Assembly (NCBI RefSeq): GCF_003044035.1
Contig: NZ_NVQC01000009.1
Span: 60,001-92,000, forward strand
From: Candidatus Methylomirabilis limnetica
GTDB lineage: Bacteria; Methylomirabilota; Methylomirabilia; Methylomirabilales; Methylomirabilaceae
DNA length: 32,000 nucleotides
Direction: 5' to 3'
Made by a program: the position numbers and the translations under genes. The notes under the pieces are model-generated. The model had not been told where the DNA came from, did not search any database, and was given only the letters and a program-made list of their open reading frames with translations. Shown here piece after piece: positions 2,641 to 27,512 of the stretch; the stretch's first letter is position 1, and every line of letters starts with the position of its first letter.

Positions 2641-3335
2641 CCAAGATGACTCAGGTGATCTAGCACGGCCTGCCGCTCCTTCTCGTCGAGCGTGGCGAGC
2701 GATTCCAATGGGTCGGCTTCTGGGCGTAGGACCCAGGCCGTTTCGAGCCGATCCGCAATCTCATTCACCCAGCGGAGCCGCTGAATCGCTTCTACCAGGA
2801 TAGAAGGCTCCTCAACCAGCTCTCCAGCCACTACGAACGGCTCGCCAGGGTGTTGATTCCCGTTATCGGGACGTGGTGCCATAGCCACATTGTAACCCCC
2901 GCCATTCTGGCCCCCGACCTTTTCCGTAGCAATAGGTGCCATCTGGCGATCTGCCCTTATGGGCAAGAAGCCTGGCATCCGGACGACGATGAACATTGAA
3001 ACGGCCGCCACCGCCAAGCCGGCGATGAGGCGGGGCCGGAAAGCAAACCACGACCCTACGCCAGCCAACCAGGCGGCGGTGGGTGTTGGCCTGTGCCTAC
3101 AGGCCTCCTGCTCGATTCGATGCTTCAGCGAAGGCAGGAACTCTTCCCAAAAGCCCGGCGACGGTTCAGGAACCGGGTCAGCCCGGACAAGAGCTAAGAG
3201 ATTGTGATACGCGGAGCGCTCAGCGGCGCACGTCGCACAGTCACGAAGATGCGCGAGAACCTCAGCCCTCTGCGCTGGCGGTAGATCCTCCTCGATCAAC
3301 TCGATCAGCTTGCACTCAACTTCCTCACATCGCAT
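2625..3335 (-). CDS. Anti-sigma factor, zf-HC2 type, single-pass membrane
   Basis: 236-aa ORF. The N-terminus carries the H-x3-C-x2-C motif (HLRDCATCAAE). A central TM helix (LIAGLAVAAVSMFIVV) is present. It lies immediately downstream of the ECF sigma gene. Confidence 0.8.
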   Translation of the reverse strand: MRCEEVECKLIELIEEDLPPAQRAEVLAHLRDCATCAAERSAYHNLLALVRADPVPEPSPGFWEEFLPSLKHRIEQEACRHRPTPTAAWLAGVGSWFAFRPRLIAGLAVAAVSMFIVVRMPGFLPIRADRQMAPIATEKVGGQNGGGYNVAMAPRPDNGNQHPGEPFVVAGELVEEPSILVEAIQRLRWVNEIADRLETAWVLRPEADPLESLATLDEKERQAVLDHLSHLGWSES

Positions 3336-8356: not shown

Positions 8357-9265
8357 GTGGCGAACGTACTCGTCCGTCCGACTACTTTTGACTGGAACCC
8401 GGCCCTCGAATTACGGTTAGCAGGGATCGACGGTGGGGAGATCTTTTATGCCGTAGCCGGTGAGGGGGCCCCGGTGCTCTTGCTCCACGGCTTTGGAGGA
8501 GAGATCTGGATGTGGGAAAGGCAGGTGGAGGCGATGTCAAAGCGATATCGCCTGTACATCCCCGATCTCCTCGGATACGGCTATTCGGATCGGCCAAAGG
8601 TTGACTACACGCCGTCGCTTTTCGTCGATACGATCAGGCAGTTCATGGACCAAATCGGCGTAAGCCGTGCCAGCCTGATCGGAAACTCAATGGGTGCGGG
8701 GATCGCCTGGGCGTTTGCCCTCACCTACCCCACGCGAGTTGACAAGCTTATCCTGATCGATGGTATCCCCCCACATGTGGTCCCCGCGGTTCGAAGTCGC
8801 CTCTTGCGTTGGTTTCTCGCGATCCGACACATCCCCCTATTGCCTTACCTGGCTCTCGCATTACGGACTCGCCTCATGGTGCGGGCAGAGCTGATGGAGG
8901 CCATCTATGACGATCGGTTGGTCACTGACATGGTGGTCGAACGGCAGCACCAGATCAGCCGCATTGAAGGGACCGCCAGGGTCATGGCCTCTACGGTGCG
9001 CTACGCTGATGGGGTTGCTCGGTATGCCGACGCACTGGAGACCTTGCGCAAGCCAACGCTGATCATCTGGGGTGAACAGGATGAACTGTTTCCTGTGGCG
9101 GTGGGTTCGCAGCTCCACGCCTCAATCCGGGATTCCGAGCTGGTTGTCATTAAAGACAGCGGTCATATGGTGATGTGGGAGAAGCCCGACGAGACCAACC
9201 AGGCGATCCTGGAGTTCCTTGGCCGTCCCCCAGAGCGGTCGTGTACTGGTATCCCGCCACGATGA
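8357..9265 (+). CDS. Alpha/beta-fold hydrolase
   Basis: 302 aa with a GTG start. Oxyanion HGFGG, nucleophile elbow GNSMG and catalytic His in DSGHMVMWEKP. The last ~13 aa (RPPERSCTGIPPR) run past the usual family C-terminus into the island junction. Confidence 0.9.
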   Translation: MANVLVRPTTFDWNPALELRLAGIDGGEIFYAVAGEGAPVLLLHGFGGEIWMWERQVEAMSKRYRLYIPDLLGYGYSDRPKVDYTPSLFVDTIRQFMDQIGVSRASLIGNSMGAGIAWAFALTYPTRVDKLILIDGIPPHVVPAVRSRLLRWFLAIRHIPLLPYLALALRTRLMVRAELMEAIYDDRLVTDMVVERQHQISRIEGTARVMASTVRYADGVARYADALETLRKPTLIIWGEQDELFPVAVGSQLHASIRDSELVVIKDSGHMVMWEKPDETNQAILEFLGRPPERSCTGIPPR

Positions 9266-9384
9266 GCCTCGCTATCCGCAGCATCGACGCCCAGCGCGAC
9301 GAGCCGATCGGCCGGATCGAGAAGCAACTGCGCCAGCGCCACACGCTCAACCCAGTATTCGCGTTTCGGTGGAGTCTGGCATGA
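9262..9384 (+). pseudogene. 3' fragment, paralogous to the C-terminus of the 88-aa ORF at 10872-11138
   Basis: IDAQRDEPIGRIEKQLRQRHTLNPVFAFRWSLA versus IDTQRDELIKRIEGQLHQRHALKPVFTFRWRLA gives 24/33 identical by hand alignment. The N-terminal half of the full copy is absent. Confidence 0.55.
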
Positions 9385-9593
9385 AAACGAATGCCCCAGT
9401 CAACATAAAGCAACTGTCGGGTTTCCTGCGTCAGGGTGAGGGCCCGGCGCTGGAGTTCAAGCGTTCCACGGGCGAGATAAAGGAAAGCATGCAGACGCTT
9501 TGCGCCTTCCTCAACGGTATCGGCGGTACGGTCATCTTCGGCATCTGGCCGGACTGCGTGGCAGGCAGTCCGCCGTATGGGGGAGAACCGTGA
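9381..9593 (+). pseudogene. 5' fragment of a COG2865/AlbA_2-domain gene, paralogue of 11135-12631
   Basis: 70-aa ORF whose first 58 aa are about 70% identical (40/58 by hand) to the N-terminus of the 498-aa protein. It includes LEFKRSTGE..MQTLCAFLNGIGGTVIFGI. Homology stops at about 9555. Confidence 0.7.
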
Positions 9594-10660
9594 TGACGCT
9601 ACGCCAGTTCCTGGCCAAGCACGAAAGCGTTCCCGCAACGACTGCTTGGTATCTTGCGGATCTGGGTGAGGCGCGCGGCAAGCAGGAGTTGTTCACGCGG
9701 CAGTCCCCGCAACGCTTGAAAGCGCTGCAGGAGCACGCGCTTATCGAAAGTGCGGTCTCCTCCAACCGAATCGAGGGGGTGGAGGTGGACAAGGCGCGCA
9801 TCGGTACGCTCATTTTCGGCAAGCCATTTCTGCGGGACCGCAACGAGGAAGAAGTGCACGGGTATCGCCAAGCGCTGAAGCTCATCCACGAGAAGGGTTC
9901 GAAGCTGCCCCTGACCGAAGAGACGGTCCTCCGTTTACACCGGATGGCCCGCGGCGAAATCTGGGACGCGGGCAAATATAAGGAAAAAGACGGAGACATT
10001 ATTGAGAGGCATGCGGACGGCACCTCGCGCATCCGCTTCAAGACCGTGCCGGCCGCCAAGACGCCAGGTGCCATGAAGGATCTGATCGCGCTCTGGAATA
10101 CCTGCATCGAGGAGCGCGCGGTGCACCCCCTCATTGCTTTGGCGGCCTTCAATCTGGATTTTCTGTGCATTCATCCGTTTCGGGACGGGAACGGCAGGAC
10201 GTCTCGTCTGCTGTTCTTGCTCCAATGTTACCATCTCGGCTACGAGGCGGGACGGTACATCAGCCTGGAGCGCCTCATCGAGCAGAATAAGGATCGTTAT
10301 TACGACACCTTGGAGCGAAGCTCCGCGAAATGGCACGAAGGGAAACACAATCCCTGGCCGCATGTGAACTACCTGCTCTACATTCTCAAAACCGCCTGCA
10401 GGGAATTCGAAGACCGCCTGGGTCGGATCAAAAGTCCGCGAGGCGAGAAGACGGGGCTGGTCGTTCAGGCGATCCATCGCATGACGGACGTCTTCCGCGT
10501 CGCCGACCTGCAGAAACAATGCCCGTGGGTCAGTGTGGACATGATCCGGCGGGTGCTCAAAAATCTACGGGCGAAAGAAGCCGTGGAATGTCTGGGGCGC
10601 GGGCAAAGCGCCACGTGGCGAAAAACGCCCAAGTGGCGGGAATTGGGTAATACCGATTGA
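9593..10660 (+). CDS. Fic family protein (Fic_N, Fic core, C-terminal wHTH)
   Basis: 355 aa from the ATG at 9593 (TGATG overlap with the upstream ORF). Canonical Fic motif HPFRDGNGRTSRLL. An N-terminal SNRIEG matches the [ST]xxxE[GN] autoinhibitory helix motif. The upstream 31 codons in the ORF track look like spurious extension. Confidence 0.9.
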   Translation: MTLRQFLAKHESVPATTAWYLADLGEARGKQELFTRQSPQRLKALQEHALIESAVSSNRIEGVEVDKARIGTLIFGKPFLRDRNEEEVHGYRQALKLIHEKGSKLPLTEETVLRLHRMARGEIWDAGKYKEKDGDIIERHADGTSRIRFKTVPAAKTPGAMKDLIALWNTCIEERAVHPLIALAAFNLDFLCIHPFRDGNGRTSRLLFLLQCYHLGYEAGRYISLERLIEQNKDRYYDTLERSSAKWHEGKHNPWPHVNYLLYILKTACREFEDRLGRIKSPRGEKTGLVVQAIHRMTDVFRVADLQKQCPWVSVDMIRRVLKNLRAKEAVECLGRGQSATWRKTPKWRELGNTD

Positions 10661-10673
10661 ATTAGGTAATGAA

Positions 10674-10875
10674 TTGGGTATCGTTGGAGCGACGGGTTCG
10701 GAGAAAATCCTCGTGCTCCTTCGGCGGAATCCAGAGGGTTTCCGCCAGGGGCATTGCAGACGCCGTGGGTCTGACCTCGCGGGCCGTGGAGAAACATCTG
10801 AGCAAACTGAAGCAGGAGGGCCGCCTCAAGCGCATCGGCCCCGACAAGGGTGGACGCTGGGAGGTGACCCGATGA
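10674..10875 (+). pseudogene. Frameshifted C-terminal winged-helix module of a COG2865-type protein
   Basis: Helix 1 (GSEKILVLLRRNPE) is in the frame of ORF 10674-11138. The rest (VSARGIADAVGLTSRAVEKHLSKLKQEGRLKRIGPDKGGRWEV) is in the frame of ORF 10669-10875. The frames join if one G of the GGG run at 10736-10738 is removed. Confidence 0.55.
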
Positions 10876-11138
10876 CGGAACCCACGATCATCTGCTCCAA
10901 GTGCAAGACTGACATCAAGCTCACAGAATCGCTGGCCGCCGCGCTCAAGGACAAGCTCGAAGCTCAGAGGGGGCTCAAGTCGCTGGAGGCCGAGCGGAAT
11001 AGGAAGCGCCGGGAGCTCTTCGACGCGCAGGACGCCATCGATACCCAGCGGGATGAACTCATCAAGCGGATCGAGGGACAACTGCACCAGCGCCACGCGT
11101 TAAAGCCGGTGTTCACGTTCCGGTGGAGGCTGGCATGA
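10872..11138 (+). CDS. 88-aa CxxC + coiled-coil protein of unknown function
   Basis: ATG at 10872 (ATGA overlap upstream) and stop overlapping the next ATG (ATGA at 11135-11138). Sequence is MTEPTIICSKCKTDIKL, then a charged helical region, then the conserved tail KPVFTFRWRLA. Confidence 0.55.
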   Translation: MTEPTIICSKCKTDIKLTESLAAALKDKLEAQRGLKSLEAERNRKRRELFDAQDAIDTQRDELIKRIEGQLHQRHALKPVFTFRWRLA

Positions 11139-12631
11139 ACCGCGGCACGACGGTCAACGCGCAAGAGCTATCGACGCTCCTGACTCATGGCGAGGGGGAG
11201 TCCATTGAGTTCAAGCGTTCGACCGGCGAGATGAAGGAGGCCATGCAGACCTTGTGCGCCTTCCTCAACGGTATCGGCGGTACGGTCATCTTCGGCATCC
11301 GGCCGGACGGCACGGCGGAAGGCCAGGACGTGACCGACAAAACATTGCGGGAGATTGCCCAAGCCACGGAGCGCTTCGAGCCTGCCGTTCATCTCTCGAT
11401 CCGCCGCGCCAAGGCCGAGGCGCGCCGTGAGGTCGTCGCCGTTTCTGTCGAGGGGGGATTGGACAAACGCCCGTTCACCTATGACGGCCGTCCCTACGAG
11501 CGGGTCGGAAGCACCACGCGACGCATGGCGCAGTCCAGATATGAGAAGACGCTCATGGACCGCGCCCACGGCACGCGTCGCTGGGAAAATGAACCAGCCG
11601 AGCGGGTGGAACTACGGGATATCGATCGGGACGAGGTGTTCCGAATCGTCAACATCGCAGCCTCTCTGGGCCGTCTTGCGGGTCCCGTGGGATCACGATT
11701 GGCGGATATCCTGGATCGCCTCAAACTGCGCCGGGACGGGAAGATTCTGCAGGCCGCCGTGGTCCTATTCGGCAAGGAGTTCATGCCAGACTATCCGCAG
11801 TGCGAACTTCGCATGGCGCGGTTCAAGGGCACCGACAAGGCGGAATTCATGGACCAGCGTCAAGTCCGTGCTCCGGCGTTCAAATTGCTTGAAGAAGCCG
11901 AGTTGTTCTGCCAGCGCCATTTTCCGATGCCGGCCAAGGTCGTACCGGAACAGCTTCGCCGCGTTGAATCGCCGCTCATTCCGATTGACGCCATGCGCGA
12001 GATTCTGGTCAACGCGCTCATTCATCGAGACTATTCCATCGCGGGCGGTGCGGTTTCGCTGGCCATCTTCGATGACCGGGTAGAGGTTTGGAGCGCGGGT
12101 ACCTATCCAACCGGGATTACACCAGATAAACTGAGCAAGCCCCATTTGTCTGTACAGCGCAACCCGATCATTGCGGATGTTTTCAACAGAACGGGGCTGA
12201 TCGAGAAGTGGGGACGGGGAACGAACCGGGTTATTGCGATGTGCCGGAAGGCGGGCCTTGCTCCTCCGACATTCGATGAGATTACCGGGGCGGCCGTGGT
12301 CACCTTCCTGGTCAACGTGCTGGGGCCTGGACGCGAGTCCGCACAAGTCGCGGGACCAAGTCGGGACCAAGTCGGGACCAAGTCGGGACCAAGTCGGGAC
12401 CAAGTCGCCGTACTTGAGCGGTGCCGCGATGCCCGCGCCTTGCTGGAGATCATGGGGGTCGCGGGTCGCACCAACCGCACCAAATTTCGCGAAGGCGTTC
12501 TCAAGCCGCTGATTGAAGCGGGGCTTCTGGAGCCGACCATTCCCGACAAGCCGAGAAGTCGGATGCAGCGGTACAAGACTACGGGGGCCGGGCTGGCCAT
12601 GCTGGAGAAGGAACGTCATGGCGAACCATAA
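11135..12631 (+). CDS. COG2865-type protein: AlbA_2 (Schlafen-related) domain, HATPase_c_4-like domain, C-terminal wHTH
   Basis: 498 aa. N-terminus has IEFKRSTGE...CAFLNGIGGTVIFGI (AlbA_2). The centre has NALIHRDYS...RNPIIADVFNRTGLIEKWGRGTNR (HATPase_c_4 type). The C-terminus has NRTKFREGVLKPLIEAGLLEPTIPDKPRSRMQRYKTT. The stop overlaps the mod start by 14 nt. Confidence 0.85.
   Translation: MNRGTTVNAQELSTLLTHGEGESIEFKRSTGEMKEAMQTLCAFLNGIGGTVIFGIRPDGTAEGQDVTDKTLREIAQATERFEPAVHLSIRRAKAEARREVVAVSVEGGLDKRPFTYDGRPYERVGSTTRRMAQSRYEKTLMDRAHGTRRWENEPAERVELRDIDRDEVFRIVNIAASLGRLAGPVGSRLADILDRLKLRRDGKILQAAVVLFGKEFMPDYPQCELRMARFKGTDKAEFMDQRQVRAPAFKLLEEAELFCQRHFPMPAKVVPEQLRRVESPLIPIDAMREILVNALIHRDYSIAGGAVSLAIFDDRVEVWSAGTYPTGITPDKLSKPHLSVQRNPIIADVFNRTGLIEKWGRGTNRVIAMCRKAGLAPPTFDEITGAAVVTFLVNVLGPGRESAQVAGPSRDQVGTKSGPSRDQVAVLERCRDARALLEIMGVAGRTNRTKFREGVLKPLIEAGLLEPTIPDKPRSRMQRYKTTGAGLAMLEKERHGEP
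12351..12405 (+). repeat. Perfect tandem repeat, 5 x 11 bp (CGGGACCAAGT), inside a CDS
   Basis: Read directly: units at 12351, 12362, 12373, 12384 and 12395. A partial unit ACAAGTCG lies at 12343-12350 and CG follows. It encodes GPSRDQVGTKSGPSRDQV. Confidence 0.97.
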
Positions 12632-14423
12632 GACCAAGCTGGAGCTGACCTGGATCGGCAAGGAGAACCGGCCGAGGCTGGAGCCGCGCATCCTCGTCGA
12701 GGACCCGGAGAAGTCCTATCACGCCTCATCTCGGGTGAGCGACAAAGACACCTTCGATAATCGGCTCATCTTCGGGGACAACTTGCTCGCCCTCAAGGCG
12801 CTGGAGCAAGAGTTTGCCGGGAAGATCAAGTGCATCTACATCGACCCGCCGTTCAACACCCAGCAGGCGATGGAGCACTACGACGACGGCGTGGAACACT
12901 CGATCTGGCTGACGCTGATGCGTGACCGTTTGGAGATTCTGCACCGCCTGCTGGCAAGTGACGGCACGCTGTTCGTGCATATCGACGACAATGAGTTAGG
13001 CTATCTCATCGTCTTGCTGGATGAGATATTTGGTCGTCCGAACCGCGTTCACGTGGTTACGTTCAAGCAGGGTTCGGCGACCGGGCACAAGTCGATCAAC
13101 CCAGGGTGCGTCAACACAACGAACTACATCGTGATCTACGCTAAGAACAAGACGCCGTGGAAGCCGAATCGCCTGTTCACAGGCCGCGAACGCGACACGC
13201 GATACGGGCAGTTCATCGTCAACATTGAGGATCATCACGAGGGTTGGGAGATCGTCACGCTTACAAAGGCATTTGGAAGTGCGCTCGGCGTCACTGACAA
13301 AGACGCCCGGAAGATCATCAAGGATGAGCCGCAGCGAGTGGAGTCGTTCGTTCTGCAAAACGCCCGCAGAGTGATTCGTAATGCCAGGCCCAACTATGAA
13401 GGGGTTAGCGAATCCGCGAGAGAGATGATCGATGCTTCAAAACTTAAACCCAAGACTATCTTGAGGCTGGAGCGAGAAGATCACTCCGACATGTACTTCA
13501 GGAACGGCGAACGAATCCTCTTTTACGCAGACAAGCTCAAACTGGTGGATGGTGAATATGTGGCCGGTGAGCCGCTGACGACATTGTGGGATGACATCTT
13601 GTCAAACAACCTGCACAACGAGGGCGGCGTGGACTTTCCCAAGGGTAAGAAGCCCGAAGCCCTCATCAAGCGAATCCTTGAACTATCAACCAACTCCGGC
13701 GACTGGGTGCTCGACTCGTTTGCCGGGTCCGGCACTGCCGGCGCGGTGGCGCACAAGATGGGCCGCCGGTGGATCATGGTGGAGCTCGGCGAGCACTGCC
13801 ACACGCACATCATTCCGCGTCTGAAGAAGGTCGTTGACGGCGAAGACAAGGGCGGCATCACCGAGGCCGTGGGCTGGAAAGGCGGCGGGGGCTTCCGGTA
13901 TTACCGCCTTGCCCCGTCGCTCCTGGAAAAGGACCAGTTCGAGAACTGGGTCATCAACCGGAAATATAACGCCGCCATGCTGACCGAGGCGATCTGCAAG
14001 TTGGAGGGGTTCGCCTACGCCCCCAGTGACACAATCTACTGGCAGCACGGCCGCTCGACCGAGAAGGACTTCATCTACGTTACGACGCAGACGCTCGCCC
14101 GCGAGCAGATCCAGAAGCTCTCAGACGAGGTGGGCGAGGAGCGGAGCCTGCTCGTTCTATGCGGCGCGTTCCGCGTGAAGAACCTCGATGCGTTTCCGAA
14201 TCTGACGGTCAAGAAAATCCCCAAGACCGTGCTGTCCCGCTGCGAATGGGGCAAGGACGACTATAGCCTTGAGATCAGAAGCCTGCCCATGAAATCTGCC
14301 GAAGAGGAACCAGATGTCGCCGCGCCGCCCTTTGGTAAGAACCCGCGCACCAAGGCCGAGCGCCGGGACCATGCCCAAGCCACGCTGTTCGACCTGACGG
14401 GCGAAGAAGGGATGGGGTCGTGA
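12618..14423 (+). CDS. mod: Type III R-M DNA methyltransferase (Mod), beta-class N6/N4 MTase
   Basis: 601 aa from the ATG at 12618. Motif IV IYIDPPFN precedes motif I DSFAGSGTAG, with a variable region between them, as in Mod subunits. The 35 upstream codons in the track are likely not translated. Confidence 0.9.
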   Translation: MANHKTKLELTWIGKENRPRLEPRILVEDPEKSYHASSRVSDKDTFDNRLIFGDNLLALKALEQEFAGKIKCIYIDPPFNTQQAMEHYDDGVEHSIWLTLMRDRLEILHRLLASDGTLFVHIDDNELGYLIVLLDEIFGRPNRVHVVTFKQGSATGHKSINPGCVNTTNYIVIYAKNKTPWKPNRLFTGRERDTRYGQFIVNIEDHHEGWEIVTLTKAFGSALGVTDKDARKIIKDEPQRVESFVLQNARRVIRNARPNYEGVSESAREMIDASKLKPKTILRLEREDHSDMYFRNGERILFYADKLKLVDGEYVAGEPLTTLWDDILSNNLHNEGGVDFPKGKKPEALIKRILELSTNSGDWVLDSFAGSGTAGAVAHKMGRRWIMVELGEHCHTHIIPRLKKVVDGEDKGGITEAVGWKGGGGFRYYRLAPSLLEKDQFENWVINRKYNAAMLTEAICKLEGFAYAPSDTIYWQHGRSTEKDFIYVTTQTLAREQIQKLSDEVGEERSLLVLCGAFRVKNLDAFPNLTVKKIPKTVLSRCEWGKDDYSLEIRSLPMKSAEEEPDVAAPPFGKNPRTKAERRDHAQATLFDLTGEEGMGS

Positions 14424-14959
14424 AAACGAAGCCGGCGTCCGCCTTGTATGGCCGCATCAGAGAGATTCTCGAGTCCGCCCGTGCAAGTGTCGCACGCTCC
14501 GTCAATACCACTCAGGTTGTGGCCAACTGGTTGGTCGGTCGGGAAATCGTAGAAGAGGAGCAGAAGGGGAAGGCGAAGGCGGCGTATGGGGAGCGGCTCC
14601 TGGCGGAACTCTCCAGCCGCCTCCGAGCGGAGTATGGTAACGGCTACTCGGTGGACAATCTCGAACTGTTCCGCCGGTTTTATGGGGAATATCCCGCCTT
14701 AATCTCTGACGCGCTGCCTCGGAAATTCTCCATGCCGCAGATTTCCGACGCACTGCGTCGGAAATCGCCTCCCGCGGATTTGGGCGCACTCGCGTTCGGC
14801 GGATCAGAGGTGCGCGCCGCCATGAGATGGAGACCCGGGATACTGCATCCGAATCCCTCATGGACCCATTACCGGCCAACTGAGGCCGAGCTCCGAGCGG
14901 AATTGCGGCGTGAAGTACGCGCGCTCACCGCTCCCAAGAAGCACGGAGACGCGCAATGA
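14420..14959 (+). CDS. DUF1016 (YhcG) N-terminal-domain protein lacking the PD-(D/E)xK core
   Basis: 179 aa with a GTG start overlapping the mod stop (GTGA). The N-terminus LYGRIREILESARASVARSVNTTQVVANWLVGREIVEEEQKGKAKAAYGERLL matches the DUF1016 N-domain by eye. After SWTHYR it jumps to a C-terminal-tail-like PTEAELRAELRRE. There is no room for the nuclease domain. Confidence 0.65.
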   Translation: MKTKPASALYGRIREILESARASVARSVNTTQVVANWLVGREIVEEEQKGKAKAAYGERLLAELSSRLRAEYGNGYSVDNLELFRRFYGEYPALISDALPRKFSMPQISDALRRKSPPADLGALAFGGSEVRAAMRWRPGILHPNPSWTHYRPTEAELRAELRREVRALTAPKKHGDAQ

Positions 14960-17640
14960 ACCCGGCTGTGAACACTATTGCCAACCGATTGAGCCTCCGC
15001 TCGCCGCAGCGGATCTCGCTCGAAATCCTGGCGCGAATCTGCGATATCATCTCCCTGGAAAAGGGCGCGGACGTGGCCCAGGCGATCAAGGCAGTCCGGT
15101 CGGAATTCTCGACGGTCACGGATTTCGAGCGGGACTTCCCGTCCCTCTGCTTTGCCCTGGCGACCGGCGTGGGCAAGACGCGGCTCATGGGCGCGTTCAT
15201 CGCCTATCTCCATAAGGCCGAGGGTATCCGTCACTTCTTCGTCCTCGCCCCGAACCTGACCATCTACAACAAGCTGATCGCGGACTTTACGCCCAACACG
15301 CCGAAGTACGTCTTCCAGGGAATCGCCGAGTTCGCGGTCGAGCCACCGGAGATCATTACCGGCGATAACTACGAGAGCGGGCGCGGCGTGCGGAGTCGAG
15401 ATCTCTTTGGCGACAAGAGCGTTCACGTCAATATCTTCAACATCGGCAAGATCACGAGCATCGAGACGCCCAAGGGCGCGGTCAAGACGAACGTCCCGAA
15501 GTTCCGCCGCCTGCAAGAGTACATCGGCCAGAGCTATTTCGAATGCCTCTCGAAGCTGGACGACCTCGTGCTCCTCATGGACGAGTCGCACCGCTACCGG
15601 GCGTCGGCGGGCATGAAGGCCATCAACGAGCTCAAGCCCATCCTGGGTCTGGAGCTCACCGCCACGCCGCAGATAGAGCGCGGCGGCGGATCGGAGCCGT
15701 TCAAGAACGTGATCTACAGCTACCCCCTGTCGGACGCGATGGAGGACGGCTTCGTCAAGGAACCCGCCGTTGCCACGCGCGAGAACTTCGACATCCGCAA
15801 CTACGACGAGGGCGGGCTAGAACGCCTCAAGCTTGGGGACGGCGTCCGCATCCATGAGAACACCAAGCTCGAGCTGGAGGTCTACGCCCGCGAAAACGGC
15901 GTGCCCATTGTAAAGCCCTTCATGCTCGTGATCGCCAAGGACACGGACCACGCCAACGCCCTGGTGAAGCTGATGGAGGACGACACCTTCTTCGAGGGCC
16001 GCTACAAGGGCAAGGTCATTACGGTACATTCCGCCCTCAGAGGAGAAGAGCGCGACGACACGGTCGAGCAACTGATCCACGTGGAGAAGCCCGACAACCC
16101 CACGGAGATCGTGGTCCACGTGAACATGCTCAAGGAAGGCTGGGACGTTACGAACCTTTACACGATCGTCCCGCTACGGGCGGCGAACTCGAGGACGCTC
16201 GTGGAGCAGTCCATCGGCCGGGGCTTGCGCCTGCCCTACGGAAAGCGCACCGGCATCGGCGCGGTGGACCGCCTGACCATCGTGTCGCACGACAAGTTCC
16301 AGGAGATCGTGGACTACGCCAACAGCCCCGAGTCCATCATCCGGGGCGGTCTGAGGGTCGTCTACGTCAGCGACGAACGATCCAAGATCGTGGTGGCAGA
16401 GCCGGAGATCGTCAGGCGGATCGCCGAACTCGTGTCTCCTTTCGGCAAGGCAGGCGAGCAGCAGAAGCTCCTATTCGAGTCGCCTAAGGAGCAGGAGGCG
16501 GCGAGGGCCACGCTGGAGGTCATCCGGGAGTTCGAGCGCCTGCCGCGCTCGGCCGACCTCACCAAGCCCGAAATCCATGAGCAGATTGTCGAGAAGGTCA
16601 AGACGCTCATCACGCCAGCCCAGCGGGAGATCGAGGGCGTGGCGGAGAAGGTGGACGTCGATCGAGTTGTCGCGGTCATGACGACGCAATACGTCGAACT
16701 GTCCATCGATATCCCCAGGATCACGATCCAGCCAGTGGGCGATGTGACACGGGGCTATCGCGAGTTCACGCTGGACCTTTCGCGGGTGAACTACCAGCCC
16801 GTGGAGAACGAGATCCTGATCCAGGAGTTGCACCGTCGCGAACAGCACCGCCTGATGAGCGGGACCGGTATCGTCCCCGAGGAGAAGCCGGAGGACTATT
16901 TGGTGCGCGGGCTCATCGACTTCAACGACATCTCCTACGACGACCAGGCCGAGCTACTCTACAAGCTGGTCGGGCAGGTCGTGGCCCACTTGCGCTCCTA
17001 TCTGAAGGACGAAAACGAGGTCCTCAACGTGCTCCAGTACCACCAGCAGGGGCTGGTGAACCTGATCCACGCGCAGATGCAGGAGCACTACGAGGAGAAG
17101 GCTACGGCCTACGAGGCGCACGTGAGCAGGGGATTCACGACGCTCCGGCCGAACAACTACTCGGCTCCGGACAACGAGGCTGCGCGCGACTTCCGCGCAC
17201 CCGTCATCGAGAAGCAGGACATCCGTAAGATGCTCTTCAGCGGCTTCAAGAGATGCCTCTATCGCGTCCAGAAGTTCGATTCGGATTCGGAGCGTCGGTT
17301 CGCGGTTGTGCTGGAGAACGACTCCGATGTGCTCAAGTGGTTCAAGCCCGCCAAGGGAGACATTCCGATCTACCATTCCGGCGACACGCCCTATGAGCCC
17401 GATTTCGCAGTCGAGACCAAGACGGCGAAATTCGTCTGTGAAACCAAGCGCGCGGACGAGATGGAGGACCGCGAGGTCCTGGCCAAGGCGAAGGCGGCCG
17501 CGGAATGGTGCGGACACGCCACGACGCATGAGGGCAAGAACGGCGGCAAGCCGTGGACCTACCTGCTGATCCCGCACGACGTGATCACGGACAACAAGAC
17601 GCTCAAGGGGTTGGCCGCGTCCTACACCTATCGTGGGTAG
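14956..17640 (+). CDS. res: Type III restriction endonuclease subunit (Res), SF2 helicase + C-terminal PD-ExK nuclease
   Basis: 894 aa. Motif I ATGVGKT, motif II LMDESHR and later helicase motifs (LKEGWDV, QSIGRGLR). The C-terminal YEPDFAVE...CETK is a nuclease-like motif. ATGA overlap with the upstream ORF. Confidence 0.9.
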   Translation: MNPAVNTIANRLSLRSPQRISLEILARICDIISLEKGADVAQAIKAVRSEFSTVTDFERDFPSLCFALATGVGKTRLMGAFIAYLHKAEGIRHFFVLAPNLTIYNKLIADFTPNTPKYVFQGIAEFAVEPPEIITGDNYESGRGVRSRDLFGDKSVHVNIFNIGKITSIETPKGAVKTNVPKFRRLQEYIGQSYFECLSKLDDLVLLMDESHRYRASAGMKAINELKPILGLELTATPQIERGGGSEPFKNVIYSYPLSDAMEDGFVKEPAVATRENFDIRNYDEGGLERLKLGDGVRIHENTKLELEVYARENGVPIVKPFMLVIAKDTDHANALVKLMEDDTFFEGRYKGKVITVHSALRGEERDDTVEQLIHVEKPDNPTEIVVHVNMLKEGWDVTNLYTIVPLRAANSRTLVEQSIGRGLRLPYGKRTGIGAVDRLTIVSHDKFQEIVDYANSPESIIRGGLRVVYVSDERSKIVVAEPEIVRRIAELVSPFGKAGEQQKLLFESPKEQEAARATLEVIREFERLPRSADLTKPEIHEQIVEKVKTLITPAQREIEGVAEKVDVDRVVAVMTTQYVELSIDIPRITIQPVGDVTRGYREFTLDLSRVNYQPVENEILIQELHRREQHRLMSGTGIVPEEKPEDYLVRGLIDFNDISYDDQAELLYKLVGQVVAHLRSYLKDENEVLNVLQYHQQGLVNLIHAQMQEHYEEKATAYEAHVSRGFTTLRPNNYSAPDNEAARDFRAPVIEKQDIRKMLFSGFKRCLYRVQKFDSDSERRFAVVLENDSDVLKWFKPAKGDIPIYHSGDTPYEPDFAVETKTAKFVCETKRADEMEDREVLAKAKAAAEWCGHATTHEGKNGGKPWTYLLIPHDVITDNKTLKGLAASYTYRG

Positions 17641-17773
17641 GTGCGGACGGGCGAATGAAGGGGAAATCAGCAACGATCGAGGAGCGAGCGGACCGACTTT
17701 ACCCGTATCCGTTGCCTTACCATCGTCGGGGACTTGATGGGTGGTGTGACGAACAGAGGCGTGCTACGCGGTG

Positions 17774-18355
17774 TTAACGCTGGCGTCCGGCCGATTGTCG
17801 GCGATCTGGGAGCGGTGAGAGATCAAGTCGTTGCTTGGCCCAGAGAATGCCGATGATGCTCTTGGCATCTACAAACTTATTTGACAGGACCCAGCGGTAG
17901 GCCTGTTCGAACGGGATCGCACGGGCCTGTAGGAACTCGGTAGGATCGTGGCGGCGGTCCCGGCCGGCTATGAGTCCTTGAGCCAGAAAAAGCTGGATGG
18001 AGCCGGTGGAGAAGCCAACTGCGGAATAGAAGGCGCACAGCTTGAGCAGTCGGCGCGGGCGAAGTCCGATCTCCTCTTCGCACTCCCGCCGGGCGGTTTC
18101 GACCGGGCGTTCGCCGTGATCGATGATGCCGGCCGGGATCTCGTAGATGGCCCGCTGGATGGCCGGCCGATACTGTCGAACCAGGTGGATTCGGCCGTCG
18201 TCATCGATCGGCACGATCGCGACTGCGTGCGGAGGGCGAACGATGTCCCGGATCGCCTGTCGCCCATCCGGCAGGACGACCGTCTGTTGCTCGGTTGAAA
18301 GGTACGCCCCCGCGTAGACTACCTGCGTGCCGAGGACTCGTTCGATGAGTTTCAT
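17774..18355 (-). CDS. NUDIX hydrolase (ADP-ribose pyrophosphatase-like)
   Basis: Nudix box GIIDHGERPVETARRECEEEIGL. I prefer the ATG at 18355, preceded by GGAGGAGG, over the track start at 18418. Confidence 0.88.
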   Translation of the reverse strand: MKLIERVLGTQVVYAGAYLSTEQQTVVLPDGRQAIRDIVRPPHAVAIVPIDDDGRIHLVRQYRPAIQRAIYEIPAGIIDHGERPVETARRECEEEIGLRPRRLLKLCAFYSAVGFSTGSIQLFLAQGLIAGRDRRHDPTEFLQARAIPFEQAYRWVLSNKFVDAKSIIGILWAKQRLDLSPLPDRRQSAGRQR

Positions 18356-18446
18356 GCCTCCTCCAGCGTCTATTGAACCTGTCGAGGAGAGGATAGAGGC
18401 GCTGCAGGCTGCTGTCAACGTCGACTTTTACGAGGGGAGGGAGAGG

Positions 18447-25258: not shown

Positions 25259-25345
25259 GCCGGGGTGGTGAAACTGGCAGACGCACGGGACTCAAAATCC
25301 CGCGGACTTCGGTCCATGAGGGTTCGACCCCCTCCCCCGGCACCA
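25259..25345 (+). tRNA. tRNA-Leu (anticodon CAA), long variable arm, encoded CCA
   Basis: Hand fold: acceptor GCCGGGG/CCCCGGC. Anticodon stem CGGGA/TCCCG with loop CTCAAAA. Long variable arm CGGACTTCGGTCC. T-arm GAGGG-TTCGACC-CCCTC. Discriminator A followed by CCA. Confidence 0.93.
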
Positions 25346-25518
25346 CTTCTTTCAACAGTCTGGCCGCATCACCCCCCCACACATCCAAAGGGGATTTTTC
25401 CGCTGGCACTAGTTCTGGTACCAGTTCGGTAGGAAACCAAACGCCTGAGCGCTCGCCGTTTGTGATTCGGGGAGAGGTGGGCGTAGCACTGCACCATACC
25501 GTATAAGGCTTGAGAAAC

Positions 25519-27153
25519 TCACTTATCGACTGCTCTGTTTTTCCCCGGAGGGGCCAGAACTTTCTTCTTCTCTTTTGCTTCCCTGGAACAGATTCTGTTA
25601 CGACCTTCCTCCTTGGCAGAGTAAAGGGCTTCGTCAGCCCGCTTGAGAAAACTGGTATTTGTGTCATTGTCAGCCCAAGAGGTGACCCCGAAACTGCAGG
25701 TGACTTTACCTGCAGATGGGAACTCATTTGCCTCAATAACTGTTCTTAGTTTTTCCGCAACTGCCTCGGCTCTTTCAAGCCCGTCATCCCTTAACAGCAC
25801 GATAAACTCTTCCCCTCCAAAACGAACAAATATATCAATAACACGTATGGAGCCGGAGACCAGCCGAGACAAAGTTTTTAGCACTTCGTCCCCGACATCA
25901 TGGCCGAAGGAATCATTAATGAGCTTGAAATGATCGATATCGAACAGTATAAGGGACATTTCTGTTAGATTTCTTCGCTTTCGGTCAATCTCCTCAAGGA
26001 GAACCCTATTGAACTGCAATCTGTTATAAGCACCGGTGAGTGTGTCAGTCGAAGCCAGATAATCCTTCTCCGCCAGCAATCTCTGTGCAACCTCCAACAG
26101 ATGGTTGAAGCCTGTTGAAATACGACCTATCTCATCATCCGAGTTGGCTGGAATACGCTCACTGAAATCCATAGTTGTTGAAATTAAATCGATGCTCCTC
26201 AGTATGTTTCCAAGGGCTCGCAATAGACCGACAATAATCGATATTGTAATAATTATTATTACGGCGCCGATCGCCAAAGCCACTAAAATTCCCAGTCGTA
26301 TGGACCCCCTCAGCTCTTCAATTCTGGCAGTCGCTTTGCTTACGATATCTTCCAGCGATCTCTCTTCGACGTTTTTAAGCCCGTCCATAACGGAAGTTGC
26401 CATAGACCACCACATTTGTGTCGTAATGCGGGATGGTTTTTTCCCTGTTTGTACAGCCTGGGAGATCTCCTTTAAAGTCGACTGGATTTCAGGTGCAGAG
26501 ATCATTTCACCATATGCTTTCCTCAAATCCGGAGAAGCCTCAATTTGGAATTTGCGGAGTTCTTCTCCATATAGAGCGTTGATCTGTACAAGGTTGTGAT
26601 GTAGGTTGTCGTCTTCGCCGACGATTTCTAGCCATCGTCCTGTTGTTGCCCGCATCAACCCCATATATTCCTTTGTACCGACAAGATAGTGGTGGGCCAA
26701 AATCTCGTTTTTTGCCGAGGCGGAATCATGCTGCCTTGTGATTCGTTTCATTTCGTCCAGGATATCCCCTATCAACAAAGAATACGTATCCATGAGATCC
26801 GAGGGTTTGTGGGTGCCGCTATCGAAAGCTCTTCTCGCGCGTTCAAGCTTATGCCAAGCAAAGAAGGTCCCCCTGATAAACTGGCTCTGCATTGAGAGCA
26901 CCTTATCCGTTGCGGCACGTTGCGTAATAACCGCACCTTTACTGGCGTCCGACGCGGATATTTTTGATTTTCCCCTCTCCTTCTGCAATTCGTGAATCAC
27001 AATAGAATATGCCTTAATCACCCGTACATCATGCGAGATCGCTTCCACTTTACGGAGCTGGAGGGTGTATTCCGCATACTGGCCCCAGAGGGTAAGTGAT
27101 ATCCCGAATATCGAAAGAAGACCGAGCAGTATGATTTTTTGTCTGAGAGTCAT
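25519..27153 (-). CDS. NIT-sensor / HAMP / GGDEF diguanylate cyclase
   Basis: 544 aa. An N-terminal TM is followed by a periplasmic region with HELQKERG (NIT-domain hallmark, by memory). A second TM, HAMP and a GGDEF domain with an intact GGEEF and RxxD-like context follow. The gene is markedly AT-richer than its neighbours. Confidence 0.88.
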   Translation of the reverse strand: MTLRQKIILLGLLSIFGISLTLWGQYAEYTLQLRKVEAISHDVRVIKAYSIVIHELQKERGKSKISASDASKGAVITQRAATDKVLSMQSQFIRGTFFAWHKLERARRAFDSGTHKPSDLMDTYSLLIGDILDEMKRITRQHDSASAKNEILAHHYLVGTKEYMGLMRATTGRWLEIVGEDDNLHHNLVQINALYGEELRKFQIEASPDLRKAYGEMISAPEIQSTLKEISQAVQTGKKPSRITTQMWWSMATSVMDGLKNVEERSLEDIVSKATARIEELRGSIRLGILVALAIGAVIIIITISIIVGLLRALGNILRSIDLISTTMDFSERIPANSDDEIGRISTGFNHLLEVAQRLLAEKDYLASTDTLTGAYNRLQFNRVLLEEIDRKRRNLTEMSLILFDIDHFKLINDSFGHDVGDEVLKTLSRLVSGSIRVIDIFVRFGGEEFIVLLRDDGLERAEAVAEKLRTVIEANEFPSAGKVTCSFGVTSWADNDTNTSFLKRADEALYSAKEEGRNRICSREAKEKKKVLAPPGKNRAVDK

Positions 27154-27512
27154 TGTTTATACCACTACATAATTCAGAGAGTTATTGCTACGTCCTTTTC
27201 CAACTGTTTCAGTATCGGTTTGAAATAGTCAGTTGCCTCATAAAATACCCCGTCAAGCCCTTTGTAAACCCACTCCAATGTACAAAGTGTGGGGACAATA
27301 TGCTGTTTGTCGCGATCATTGTAGACTACCAGACATCAAGAAGCATGCACAAGCATATTGGGGAACCCAAGAGCCTGTCCTGCAAACCATCAGCTAACGG
27401 CTGAGATGTGATCGACGTGATGGGTACAAGTGTGGTCACCTGCCGGGACATGGGGCGTCAGAGCGTTGGAGTAGACCGCGCGCCGACGGCAAGAGCGGTC
27501 TGCGGGTCTCCA

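Follow-up and report, generated by a model that had tools for sequence, protein, structure and literature searches.

A decayed mosaic island around a type III restriction-modification pair in Candidatus Methylomirabilis limnetica, with probable passenger defence genes in two operon slots

The stretch of DNA analysed here, referred to as the window (32,000 nucleotides [nt] of Candidatus Methylomirabilis limnetica, positions 60,001 to 92,000 of contig NZ_NVQC01000009.1), carries a defence island of 8,519 bp at 9227 to 17745, in which nine plus-strand open reading frames (ORFs) are packed around the genes for a type III restriction-modification (R-M) methyltransferase, Mod, and endonuclease, Res. 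We consider it likely, with a probability of about 0.7, that this is a decayed mosaic type III island whose extra genes are passenger defences, and not subunits or regulators of the restriction enzyme. Four of the nine ORFs are intact, namely those for Mod, Res, a Schlafen-ATPase-winged helix protein, and a Fic protein; the other five (40, 70, 68, 88, and 179 amino acids [aa]) are remnants. The extra genes are best regarded as independent defences because they vary between homologous loci and have outlived Mod-Res in two relatives. An original prediction, made from the letters of the window, had proposed a mosaic island with type III Mod-Res at its core and non-R-M genes in an overlapping same-strand array, and this was borne out: all nine ORFs are open in the sequence, and the same nine genes are found in the public annotation of the source contig. 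Its further suggestion, that the embedded genes regulate or extend the R-M module, was not supported, since the corresponding slots of 37 homologous loci contain many unrelated defence genes or none.

The core of the island is a type III pair. Mod (12618 to 14423, plus strand; 601 aa) matches Pfam N6_N4_Mtase and the PADLOC model MTase_III (9e-196), and its DPPF motif at residue 76 precedes FAGSGT at residue 368, which is the motif order of beta-class N6/N4 methyltransferases. Homologues align only at residues 1 to 196 and 345 to 598, leaving a variable target-recognition region at about residues 197 to 344 (13206 to 13649). Res (14956 to 17640, plus strand; 894 aa) combines an SF2 helicase with a C-terminal PD-(D/E)xK nuclease, as seen from Pfam (ResIII, Helicase_C, and RE_endonuc), PADLOC (REase_III, 2e-228), and the motifs ATGVGKT, DESH, TATP, QSIGRG, and PDFAVETKTAKFVCETK. 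With res lying downstream of mod, both genes display the sequence features expected of type III R-M, and the motifs and family assignments first quoted for them were confirmed by Pfam and PADLOC. Against the NCBI model of classical type III endonucleases, Res scored 47 bits, with a cut-off of 564. Mod would be expected to methylate one strand of an asymmetric site, and Res to cut unmodified DNA; type III enzymes hemimethylate such sites and, for cleavage, require ATP and unmodified sites in inverse orientation.

We gathered 80 loci with relatives of Res (56 to 88% identity, from many phyla) and searched them with the window proteins; layout counts refer to the 37 loci in which both the 3' end of an SNF2 helicase gene and the start of mod could be placed. 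The usual order there was SNF2, a first slot, Mod, a second slot, and Res. Slot 1 ranged in size from 16 bp (L075, without cargo) to 6.6 kb, and slot 2 from 3 bp to 2 kb, mod and res being less than 140 bp apart in about half of the loci and 250 to 2,060 bp apart in the rest. The cargo of slot 1 was diverse. It included Schlafen/AlbA_2 proteins, LmuB-like AAA_23 ATPases, DUF2130, SIR2 with HerA, PDC-S06 ATPases, OLD, Gabija (GajA and GajB), HEC-01, AbiJ, a KwaB-like protein, an HTH-M78 protein, and proteins with Thoeris ThsA-Macro or ThsB-TIR domains. Slot 2 was empty or, most often, held a full-length DUF1016 gene (15 loci). Nearly all cargo genes lay on the plus strand, in the orientation of the operon; they are nested, on the same strand, and variable between homologous loci, as embedded genes are. 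Identities of SNF2 and Res covaried (Mantel r = 0.51, p = 5e-4), as did those of Mod and Res (r = 0.38, p = 0.01), so that SNF2 tracks Res no less closely than Mod does, and no other conserved neighbour and no DrmA, DrmB, or DrmC was found around the 37 loci.

These counts also bear on the co-occurrence of Schlafen-related and DUF1016 genes with mod-res that the original prediction had put up for a survey. In the closest relatives (L003, L005, L008, L012, L019, and L150), the Schlafen gene after SNF2 and the DUF1016 gene in the mod-res gap occupy the same positions as in the window, so this part stood; across the 37 loci, it gave way to variable cargo. A literature search of incomplete coverage returned no description of an SNF2-Mod-Res triad, and both the SNF2-Mod-Res family with its two slots and the 11-nt Schlafen repeat described below appear to be new. 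The two slots offer, across the family, a ready place to look for new defence genes. A minimal SNF2-Mod-Res locus, without slot-1 cargo, is that of Brevibacillus panacihumi W25 (L075, 6743 to 10004), in which about 1.5 kb with two minus-strand ORFs, probably an insertion element, interrupts mod.

In the window, what is left of the SNF2 gene are two 3' scars. The 88-aa ORF (10872 to 11138, plus strand; copy b) had been described as a coiled-coil protein with a gene of its own, and it turned out to be an in-frame fusion in which the start of a DUF2130 gene runs into the end of an SNF2 helicase gene that has been lost. Residues 1 to 25 correspond to the DUF2130 N terminus, matching cargo proteins of about 430 aa in L042, L044, and L074 (the Pfam DUF2130 match is to the L042 protein), and residues 18 to 88 correspond to the SNF2 C terminus (tblastn, SNF2 aa 885 to 951 at 10932 to 11132). 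The ORF aligns to the C-terminal 70 or so residues of SNF2 proteins of about 950 to 1,000 aa in 34 of the 37 loci with enough flank, upstream of mod and at widely varying distances from it. We also considered a conserved small coiled-coil regulator and rejected it, as ORF maps place the match in the C terminus of a large SNF2 protein. The 40-aa ORF (9262 to 9384, plus strand; copy a) fuses sequence from upstream of SNF2 with the final 33 or so SNF2 codons, as judged from tblastn (SNF2 aa 919 to 951 at 9280 to 9378) and alignment to SNF2 C termini; the window aligns at 9094 to 9293 to positions 1 to 200 of L150, and at 9282 to 9553 to positions 3047 to 3318. The junction between the SNF2 3' end and the Schlafen 5' end is present twice, as a 281-nt direct repeat whose left copy (9282 to 9562, plus strand) is 78% identical to 11036 to 11316 at a constant offset of 1,754 nt. 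Neither this direct repeat nor the 11-nt tandem repeat had been pointed out in the original prediction. No SNF2 sequence beyond these two fragments was found by tblastn in the 32-kb window.

The full SNF2 proteins of relatives matched Pfam SNF2-rel_dom and Helicase_C and PADLOC DrmD (about 715 bits); their score against NCBIfam DISARM_DrmD_b, 723 bits, is under the cut-off of 950 and covers profile positions 23 to 654 of 868 only. The gene is missing or present as a scar in the window, L019, and L043, and it is absent, with the Mod-Res pair kept, from L039, L041, and L076. L043 was rejected as an in-frame SNF2 scar, as a stop codon divides its two parts. At another locus (L058, 1460 to 9998), a full SNF2 gene is accompanied by a second SNF2 3' fragment (aa 889 to 949), and two tandem mod genes stand before res. 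Because this duplicated junction resembles that of the window, tandem partial duplications may recur in the SNF2-Mod-Res family.

Between the two SNF2 scars lie the ends of an older Schlafen/AlbA_2 gene (copy a), with Fic in their middle. The 70-aa ORF (9381 to 9593, plus strand) is the 5' remnant, made up of 58 codons of copy a and 12 unrelated codons; it matches Pfam SLFN_AlbA_2 at positions 1 to 39 only and is 59% identical to residues 1 to 58 of the intact copy-a protein of L096. The 68-aa ORF (10669 to 10875, plus strand) is the 3' remnant, a winged helix with a weak Pfam HTH_24 match, and its residues 24 to 68 are 64% identical to the C-terminal winged helix-turn-helix (wHTH) of the L096 Schlafen (residues 429 to 473). 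L096, with its intact copy a, has no Fic gene at this position. The Fic gene itself (9593 to 10660, plus strand; 355 aa) is intact and SoFic-like, with matches to Pfam PF02661 and PADLOC SoFic (4e-34; 116 bits over positions 36 to 316 of 361) and with the catalytic motif HPFRDGNGRTSR at residue 194, which conforms to the SoFic motif HxFx(D/E)GNGRxxR. Its product may be an AMPylating, abortive-type defence. Fic is 99% identical in L092, with 10 synonymous and 5 non-synonymous differences (1.5% of nucleotides); the neighbouring remnants differ from L092 by 9 to 26% of nucleotides, the 70-aa remnant being the 26% case, with synonymous to non-synonymous counts of 2:6, 14:23, and 10:10.

Slot 2 has decayed as well. 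The 179-aa ORF between mod and res (14420 to 14959, plus strand) is, as originally described, a DUF1016 N-domain protein without a nuclease (Pfam DUF1016_N only; PADLOC PDC-S02). Alignment to the 384- to 428-aa slot-2 proteins of L008, L012, L015, L018, and L054, of which that of L012 has YhcG_C, shows that it consists of the N-domain and the last 27 or so residues, a YhcG PD-(D/E)xK nuclease domain of about 215 aa having been deleted in frame. The pairing of N-domain and C-terminal nuclease that marks DUF1016/YhcG proteins is therefore missing from it. The small ORFs (88, 40, 70, 68, and 179 aa) are accordingly deletion remnants and not purpose-built small subunits, and for annotation this means that several "hypothetical small proteins" of Ca. 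Methylomirabilis limnetica are deletion scars in an island whose exact limits are now known.

Those limits were set by DNA alignment to three relatives with an empty site (L091, L093, and L095), in which left-flank homology stops at 9226 and right-flank homology restarts at 17746; the empty site reads ...CTTAGCCGT-GA-GTGACGAACAG.... The insertion point is the stop codon of an alpha/beta-hydrolase gene (8357 to 9265, plus strand; Pfam Abhydrolase_1), which lost its own last codon and stop to the insertion and now draws its final 12 codons and stop from island DNA. Its orthologues at empty sites match residues 1 to 290 only and end in EFLSRE and a stop. On the right, the island ends 28 nt short of a convergent NUDIX gene (17774 to 18418, minus strand; gene calls and Pfam NUDIX), a host gene outside the island. 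Scanning metagenomes with the flanking hydrolase returned nine relatives in which NUDIX directly adjoins the hydrolase gene, that is, with an empty site.

In three relatives (L150, L092, and L096), this site is occupied by an island whose left junction matches that of the window. The locus of Ca. Methylomirabilis tolerans (L150; JAIOIU010000023.1, 1 to 9603) has a complete SNF2 gene (951 aa) followed by Schlafen, Mod, PDDEXK_3, and Res. Compared with the window, its Mod target-recognition region (window 12956 to 13688) is unalignable and has been swapped, as has its slot-2 gene, and the flanking parts are 85 to 90% identical; the Res proteins are 89% identical, and so are the slot-1 Schlafens. 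In L092, Fic was kept, and a deletion that removed Mod-Res fused the 88-aa ORF in frame to about residue 741 of Res. In L096, an intact Schlafen (473 aa; AlbA_2, HATPase_c_4, and HTH_24) was kept, and Mod was fused in frame at about residue 62 to the last 10 residues of Res, so that Mod-Res is lost there too. The survival of Fic in one and of Schlafen in the other argues against a dedicated partnership with the R-M pair. One site in one genus thus displays every stage, from empty and complete to SNF2-less and to R-M-less with cargo kept; the series shows how islands of this kind are assembled and taken apart, and that cargo can persist after the host system has gone.

The junctions that had been read directly from the sequence were all present: ATGA at 9262, 9381, 10872, 11135, and 14956, TGATG at 9591 to 9595, GTGA at 14420 to 14423, a 14-nt overlap at 12618 to 12631, and, as the sole gap, 13 nt at 10661 to 10673. 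The ATGA at 9262 is an accident of insertion, because the island replaced the hydrolase's own stop codon. The tight packing as such is inherited and not due to chance, because the 4-nt overlaps between SNF2 and cargo, between Mod and DUF1016, and between res and whatever gene precedes it recur in homologous loci, and the last of these is nearly universal in the 37 loci (14935 to 14959 in the window). Since the four or five codons that immediately precede the res ATG (...GGAK/GDAQ, with GGAG) are alike whether they belong to mod or DUF1016, slot-2 cargo seems to have acquired the end of mod together with the res ribosome-binding site. The mod gene has its own GGAG upstream of its ATG. Deletion scars were in frame in 8 of 11 cases (binomial p about 0.009), which would be consistent with selection for the passage of ribosomes to the next start codon.

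The intact cargo of slot 1 is the gene at 11135 to 12631 (plus strand; 498 aa), a bacterial Schlafen with a Slfn nuclease domain (Pfam SLFN_AlbA_2), a GHKL-like HATPase_c_4 domain, and a C-terminal wHTH (Fic-like_C). PF04326 was matched at 1.6e-18 over the full domain, and the catalytic motif Ex4(E/D)xK is present as EGESIEFK at residue 20, as in prokaryotic Schlafen (pSlfn) domains. Searching PDB sequences with this protein gave matches only to the uncharacterised 3lmm and to the Fic C-terminal domain 4rgl. The earlier AlbA_2/HATPase_c_4/wHTH assignment and the overlap with mod are thus confirmed by Pfam and by the sequence, and in the profile check with Pfam and PADLOC the calls for Fic, Mod, DUF1016_N, and Res held likewise. 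The protein may be a phage-triggered tRNA nuclease: phage-activated tRNases that cut the tRNA anticodon arm are known among prokaryotic Schlafens (Nat Microbiol 2026, PMC13056530). The architecture "Slfn-HisKinase-HTH" accounts for 19% of prokaryotic Schlafens and is the commonest, and it is not limited to R-M loci (PMC13056530). The window protein resembles those pSlfn proteins in its N-terminal Slfn domain with Ex4(E/D)xK, its histidine-kinase-like ATPase and HTH, and its defence neighbourhood, and differs in being embedded in an R-M operon, in carrying an 11-nt frameshifting repeat, and in having a function that is predicted.

That repeat, CGGGACCAAGT in five perfect tandem copies (12351 to 12405, plus strand), lies in the linker that leads into the wHTH, 213 nt ahead of the mod start codon. 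A near-clonal contig (L086) equals the window over 10.2 kb apart from one single-nucleotide polymorphism and the loss of two repeat units. Five copies keep the gene in frame, and the three copies of L086 cause a frameshift that yields a 451-aa product and a separate 59-aa wHTH ORF. Ca. M. tolerans (L150), at 11 to 15% nucleotide divergence, also has three copies, and its out-of-frame wHTH region is 93% identical at the protein level. Homologous genes usually have 12-nt in-frame repeats at this position, and L008 has a degenerate 11-nt version. A perfect repeat with a unit that is not a multiple of 3 and a copy number that differs between near-identical genomes has the sequence features of a contingency locus, and the 11-nt repeat looks like a candidate slipped-strand (phase-variable) switch of which only two states, five and three copies, are seen. 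Phasevarions are controlled by phase-variable type III mod genes with simple repeats, in units of 1 to 5 nt. The likeness to them is a repeat with a non-multiple-of-3 unit in a type III operon and a copy number that differs between near-identical genomes; what differs is its location, in the embedded Schlafen gene instead of mod, and its unit of 11 nt. Should the repeat truly work as a switch, a bacterial Schlafen would here be subject to phase variation. Four short-read (Logan) contigs are broken within the 11-nt array.

Taken together, these observations suggest the following history. The island would descend from a widespread three-gene system of a DrmD-like SNF2 helicase, a type III Mod, and a type III Res, whose SNF2/Mod and Mod/Res junctions would serve as slots in which independent anti-phage genes accumulate in operon orientation. 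Here, the SNF2 gene has been deleted, leaving two 3' scars, with Mod and Res remaining intact. Slot 1 holds the intact Schlafen and, ahead of it, the remains of an older slot-1 module into which Fic was inserted, and slot 2 holds a DUF1016 gene that lost its nuclease domain. The start/stop overlaps are inherited from the ancestral operon and may have persisted since most scars are in frame, so that ribosomes could still reach the next start codon, although the scars are only suggestive on this point. The extra genes would be co-transcribed passengers that add layers of defence.

Several points weigh against this reading. In the closest clade, about ten loci have the Schlafen gene directly 3' of SNF2; this position, together with the 14-nt overlap with mod, is also the pattern that a functional partnership would produce. 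Promoter and terminator scans gave counts at chance level and were uninformative on the limits of an operon. The tally of scars is biased, in that in-frame scars are more easily recognised and some of them are nested. A Mod-Res pair that has lost its SNF2 partner, as in the window, has predicted activity only, and M. limnetica is uncultured and known only from enrichments and metagenomes, so that the functions given here for the island are predicted from sequence. The Fic protein scored 56.6 bits against the NCBIfam SoFic equivalog, far under the cut-off of 550. Schlafen-HisKinase fusions have been among those assayed for defence, and the two systems that gave it had other architectures: the Ig-like fusion RorSlfn5 showed tRNA cleavage and defence, and the DUF262 fusion EcoSlfn7 showed defence (PMC13056530). 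A defence activity of the Slfn-HisKinase-HTH architecture is thus presumed, because the systems that defended were DUF262 or Ig-like fusions.

The partnership pattern can be put in a sharper form, modelled on PrrC. Mod-Res might keep the Schlafen tRNase latent until a phage, by disabling restriction, sets it free, and the wHTH or the DUF1016 N-domain might tune expression. The anticodon nuclease PrrC operates in this way in the type Ic system EcoprrI, a precedent for a tRNase embedded in an R-M operon (PMC3632139), and prokaryotic Schlafens cut the tRNA anticodon arm (PMC13056530); the likeness to PrrC is that of a predicted tRNA nuclease encoded inside an R-M operon and presumably co-expressed with it. 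The Schlafen gene is directly upstream of mod in the window, L150, L005, L027, L045, and L052, it directly follows SNF2 or its remnant in L008, L012, and L019, where other cargo stands before mod, and the window has both the 14-nt overlap with mod and the candidate switch 213 nt ahead of it. However, Schlafen and the HEPN/ABC nuclease PrrC belong to unrelated families, the island is built on a type III and not a type I system, and relatives keep one component without the other: the L096 Schlafen is intact after the loss of Mod-Res, and that of Ca. M. tolerans (L150) is frameshifted beside an intact Mod-Res. Most family loci carry other cargo or none in slot 1, the Schlafen architecture is the commonest one and not confined to R-M loci, and mod has a GGAG of its own. 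We therefore consider such coupling unlikely.

Decay on this scale also raises the question of whether the whole island, including Mod-Res, is a non-functional relic heading for deletion. The SNF2 gene is lost, five of the nine ORFs are remnants, two sister lineages lack Mod-Res, and many relatives have an empty site. Yet Mod, Res, Schlafen, and Fic are full length with intact catalytic motifs, at least six contigs, drawn from different samples, share the arrangement, and Mod-Res pairs without SNF2 are also found in L039, L041, and L076. The population variants of res (L082, L083, and L084) differ by about 6% of nucleotides, with 84 synonymous and 22 non-synonymous changes, while the stretch of about 5.5 kb that begins with the first remnant and closes with that of DUF1016 (9262 to 14959) is almost invariant, with 1 to 6 differences among M. 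limnetica samples. This indicates a recombination breakpoint at or near the start of res and an exchange of res alleles on their own. Because the 84 synonymous against 22 non-synonymous changes stand beside a near-invariant 5.5 kb, res is best read as a recombined allele under purifying selection, and a dead relic is an even less probable explanation than a PrrC-like coupling.

A broader combination of these ideas is conceivable, and we put it forward tentatively. An unnamed SNF2-Mod-Res defence family of many phyla may use its junctions as dedicated landing sites, with in-frame scars kept for ribosome flow, and the Methylomirabilis Schlafen may at the same time be phase variable (full length at five copies, losing the wHTH at three), as a contingency switch on an abortive-type tRNase ahead of mod and perhaps a PrrC-like back-up. 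As a whole, this is a possibility that we hold to be rather doubtful, and passenger defences in a decayed type III island remain our preferred reading.

The island has points in common with several described systems. Work of 2011 to 2013 had already pointed out that R-M loci of all four types can contain variable extra genes that are co-expressed (Makarova et al. 2011/2013; PMC3632139), and embedded defence genes were surveyed in Hma, BREX, DISARM, and type I R-M (Payne et al. 2024, bioRxiv 10.1101/2024.01.29.577857), a study from which the PDC-S02 (DUF1016), PDC-S04/PDC-S24 (Fic-like), and PDC-S06 (AAA_13) models stem. With these, and with the anti-phage Schlafens (PMC13056530), the view in the original prediction that such partners have no described function is outdated. 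As in the survey of Payne et al. 2024, same-orientation defence genes are nested in a multi-gene system and the cargo is highly variable; unlike there, where neither type III nor SNF2-Mod-Res was covered, the cargo here occupies two defined slots, and the instance is heavily decayed. The embedded-defence idea, described for Hma, BREX, DISARM, and type I, thereby gains a type III-based family that includes an SNF2 protein. Embedding itself was already known, the present case is a decayed instance in a less-studied host system, and current views of type III restriction are not overturned. The likeness to type III R-M enzymes such as EcoP1I and EcoP15I (Mod2Res) consists of mod preceding res, a beta-class Mod with a variable central region, and an SF2-nuclease Res; the difference is that the pair in the SNF2-Mod-Res family normally follows a DrmD-like SNF2 gene and is interrupted by cargo genes.

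The SNF2 partner also invites comparison with class 1 DISARM, which consists of drmD, drmMI (pfam13659), drmA (helicase), drmB (DUF1998), and drmC (PLD). The family's SNF2 resembles DrmD and sits just before an adenine methyltransferase; however, Mod belongs to PF01555 and not pfam13659, a type III Res is present, and the window holds no SNF2 gene. We rejected class 1 DISARM as an identity for these loci, given the lack of DrmA, DrmB, and DrmC in the window and around the 37 loci, the other methylase family, and the SNF2 score under the curated cut-off (723 versus 950 bits). Other systems are known to have recruited DrmD-like helicases. MANTIS/Gao_RL was rejected too, as its components differ (AAA+ ATPase, MtsB, methyltransferase, and helicase-nuclease).

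Outside the island, the flanking hydrolase gene differs from that of L092 by 31 non-synonymous and 27 synonymous changes, which is high for a housekeeping gene. Rfam and tRNA scans gave no match inside the island, and the only tRNA found in the scan was tRNA-Leu(CAA) at 25259 to 25345. Downstream of it, the stretch at 25500 to 27500 has a low G+C content (46 to 48%, versus about 60%) and encodes a NIT-HAMP-GGDEF protein on the minus strand; it may be another acquired segment. The remaining genes of the window are housekeeping genes, such as those for citrate synthase, PanE, and a DinB-type polymerase.

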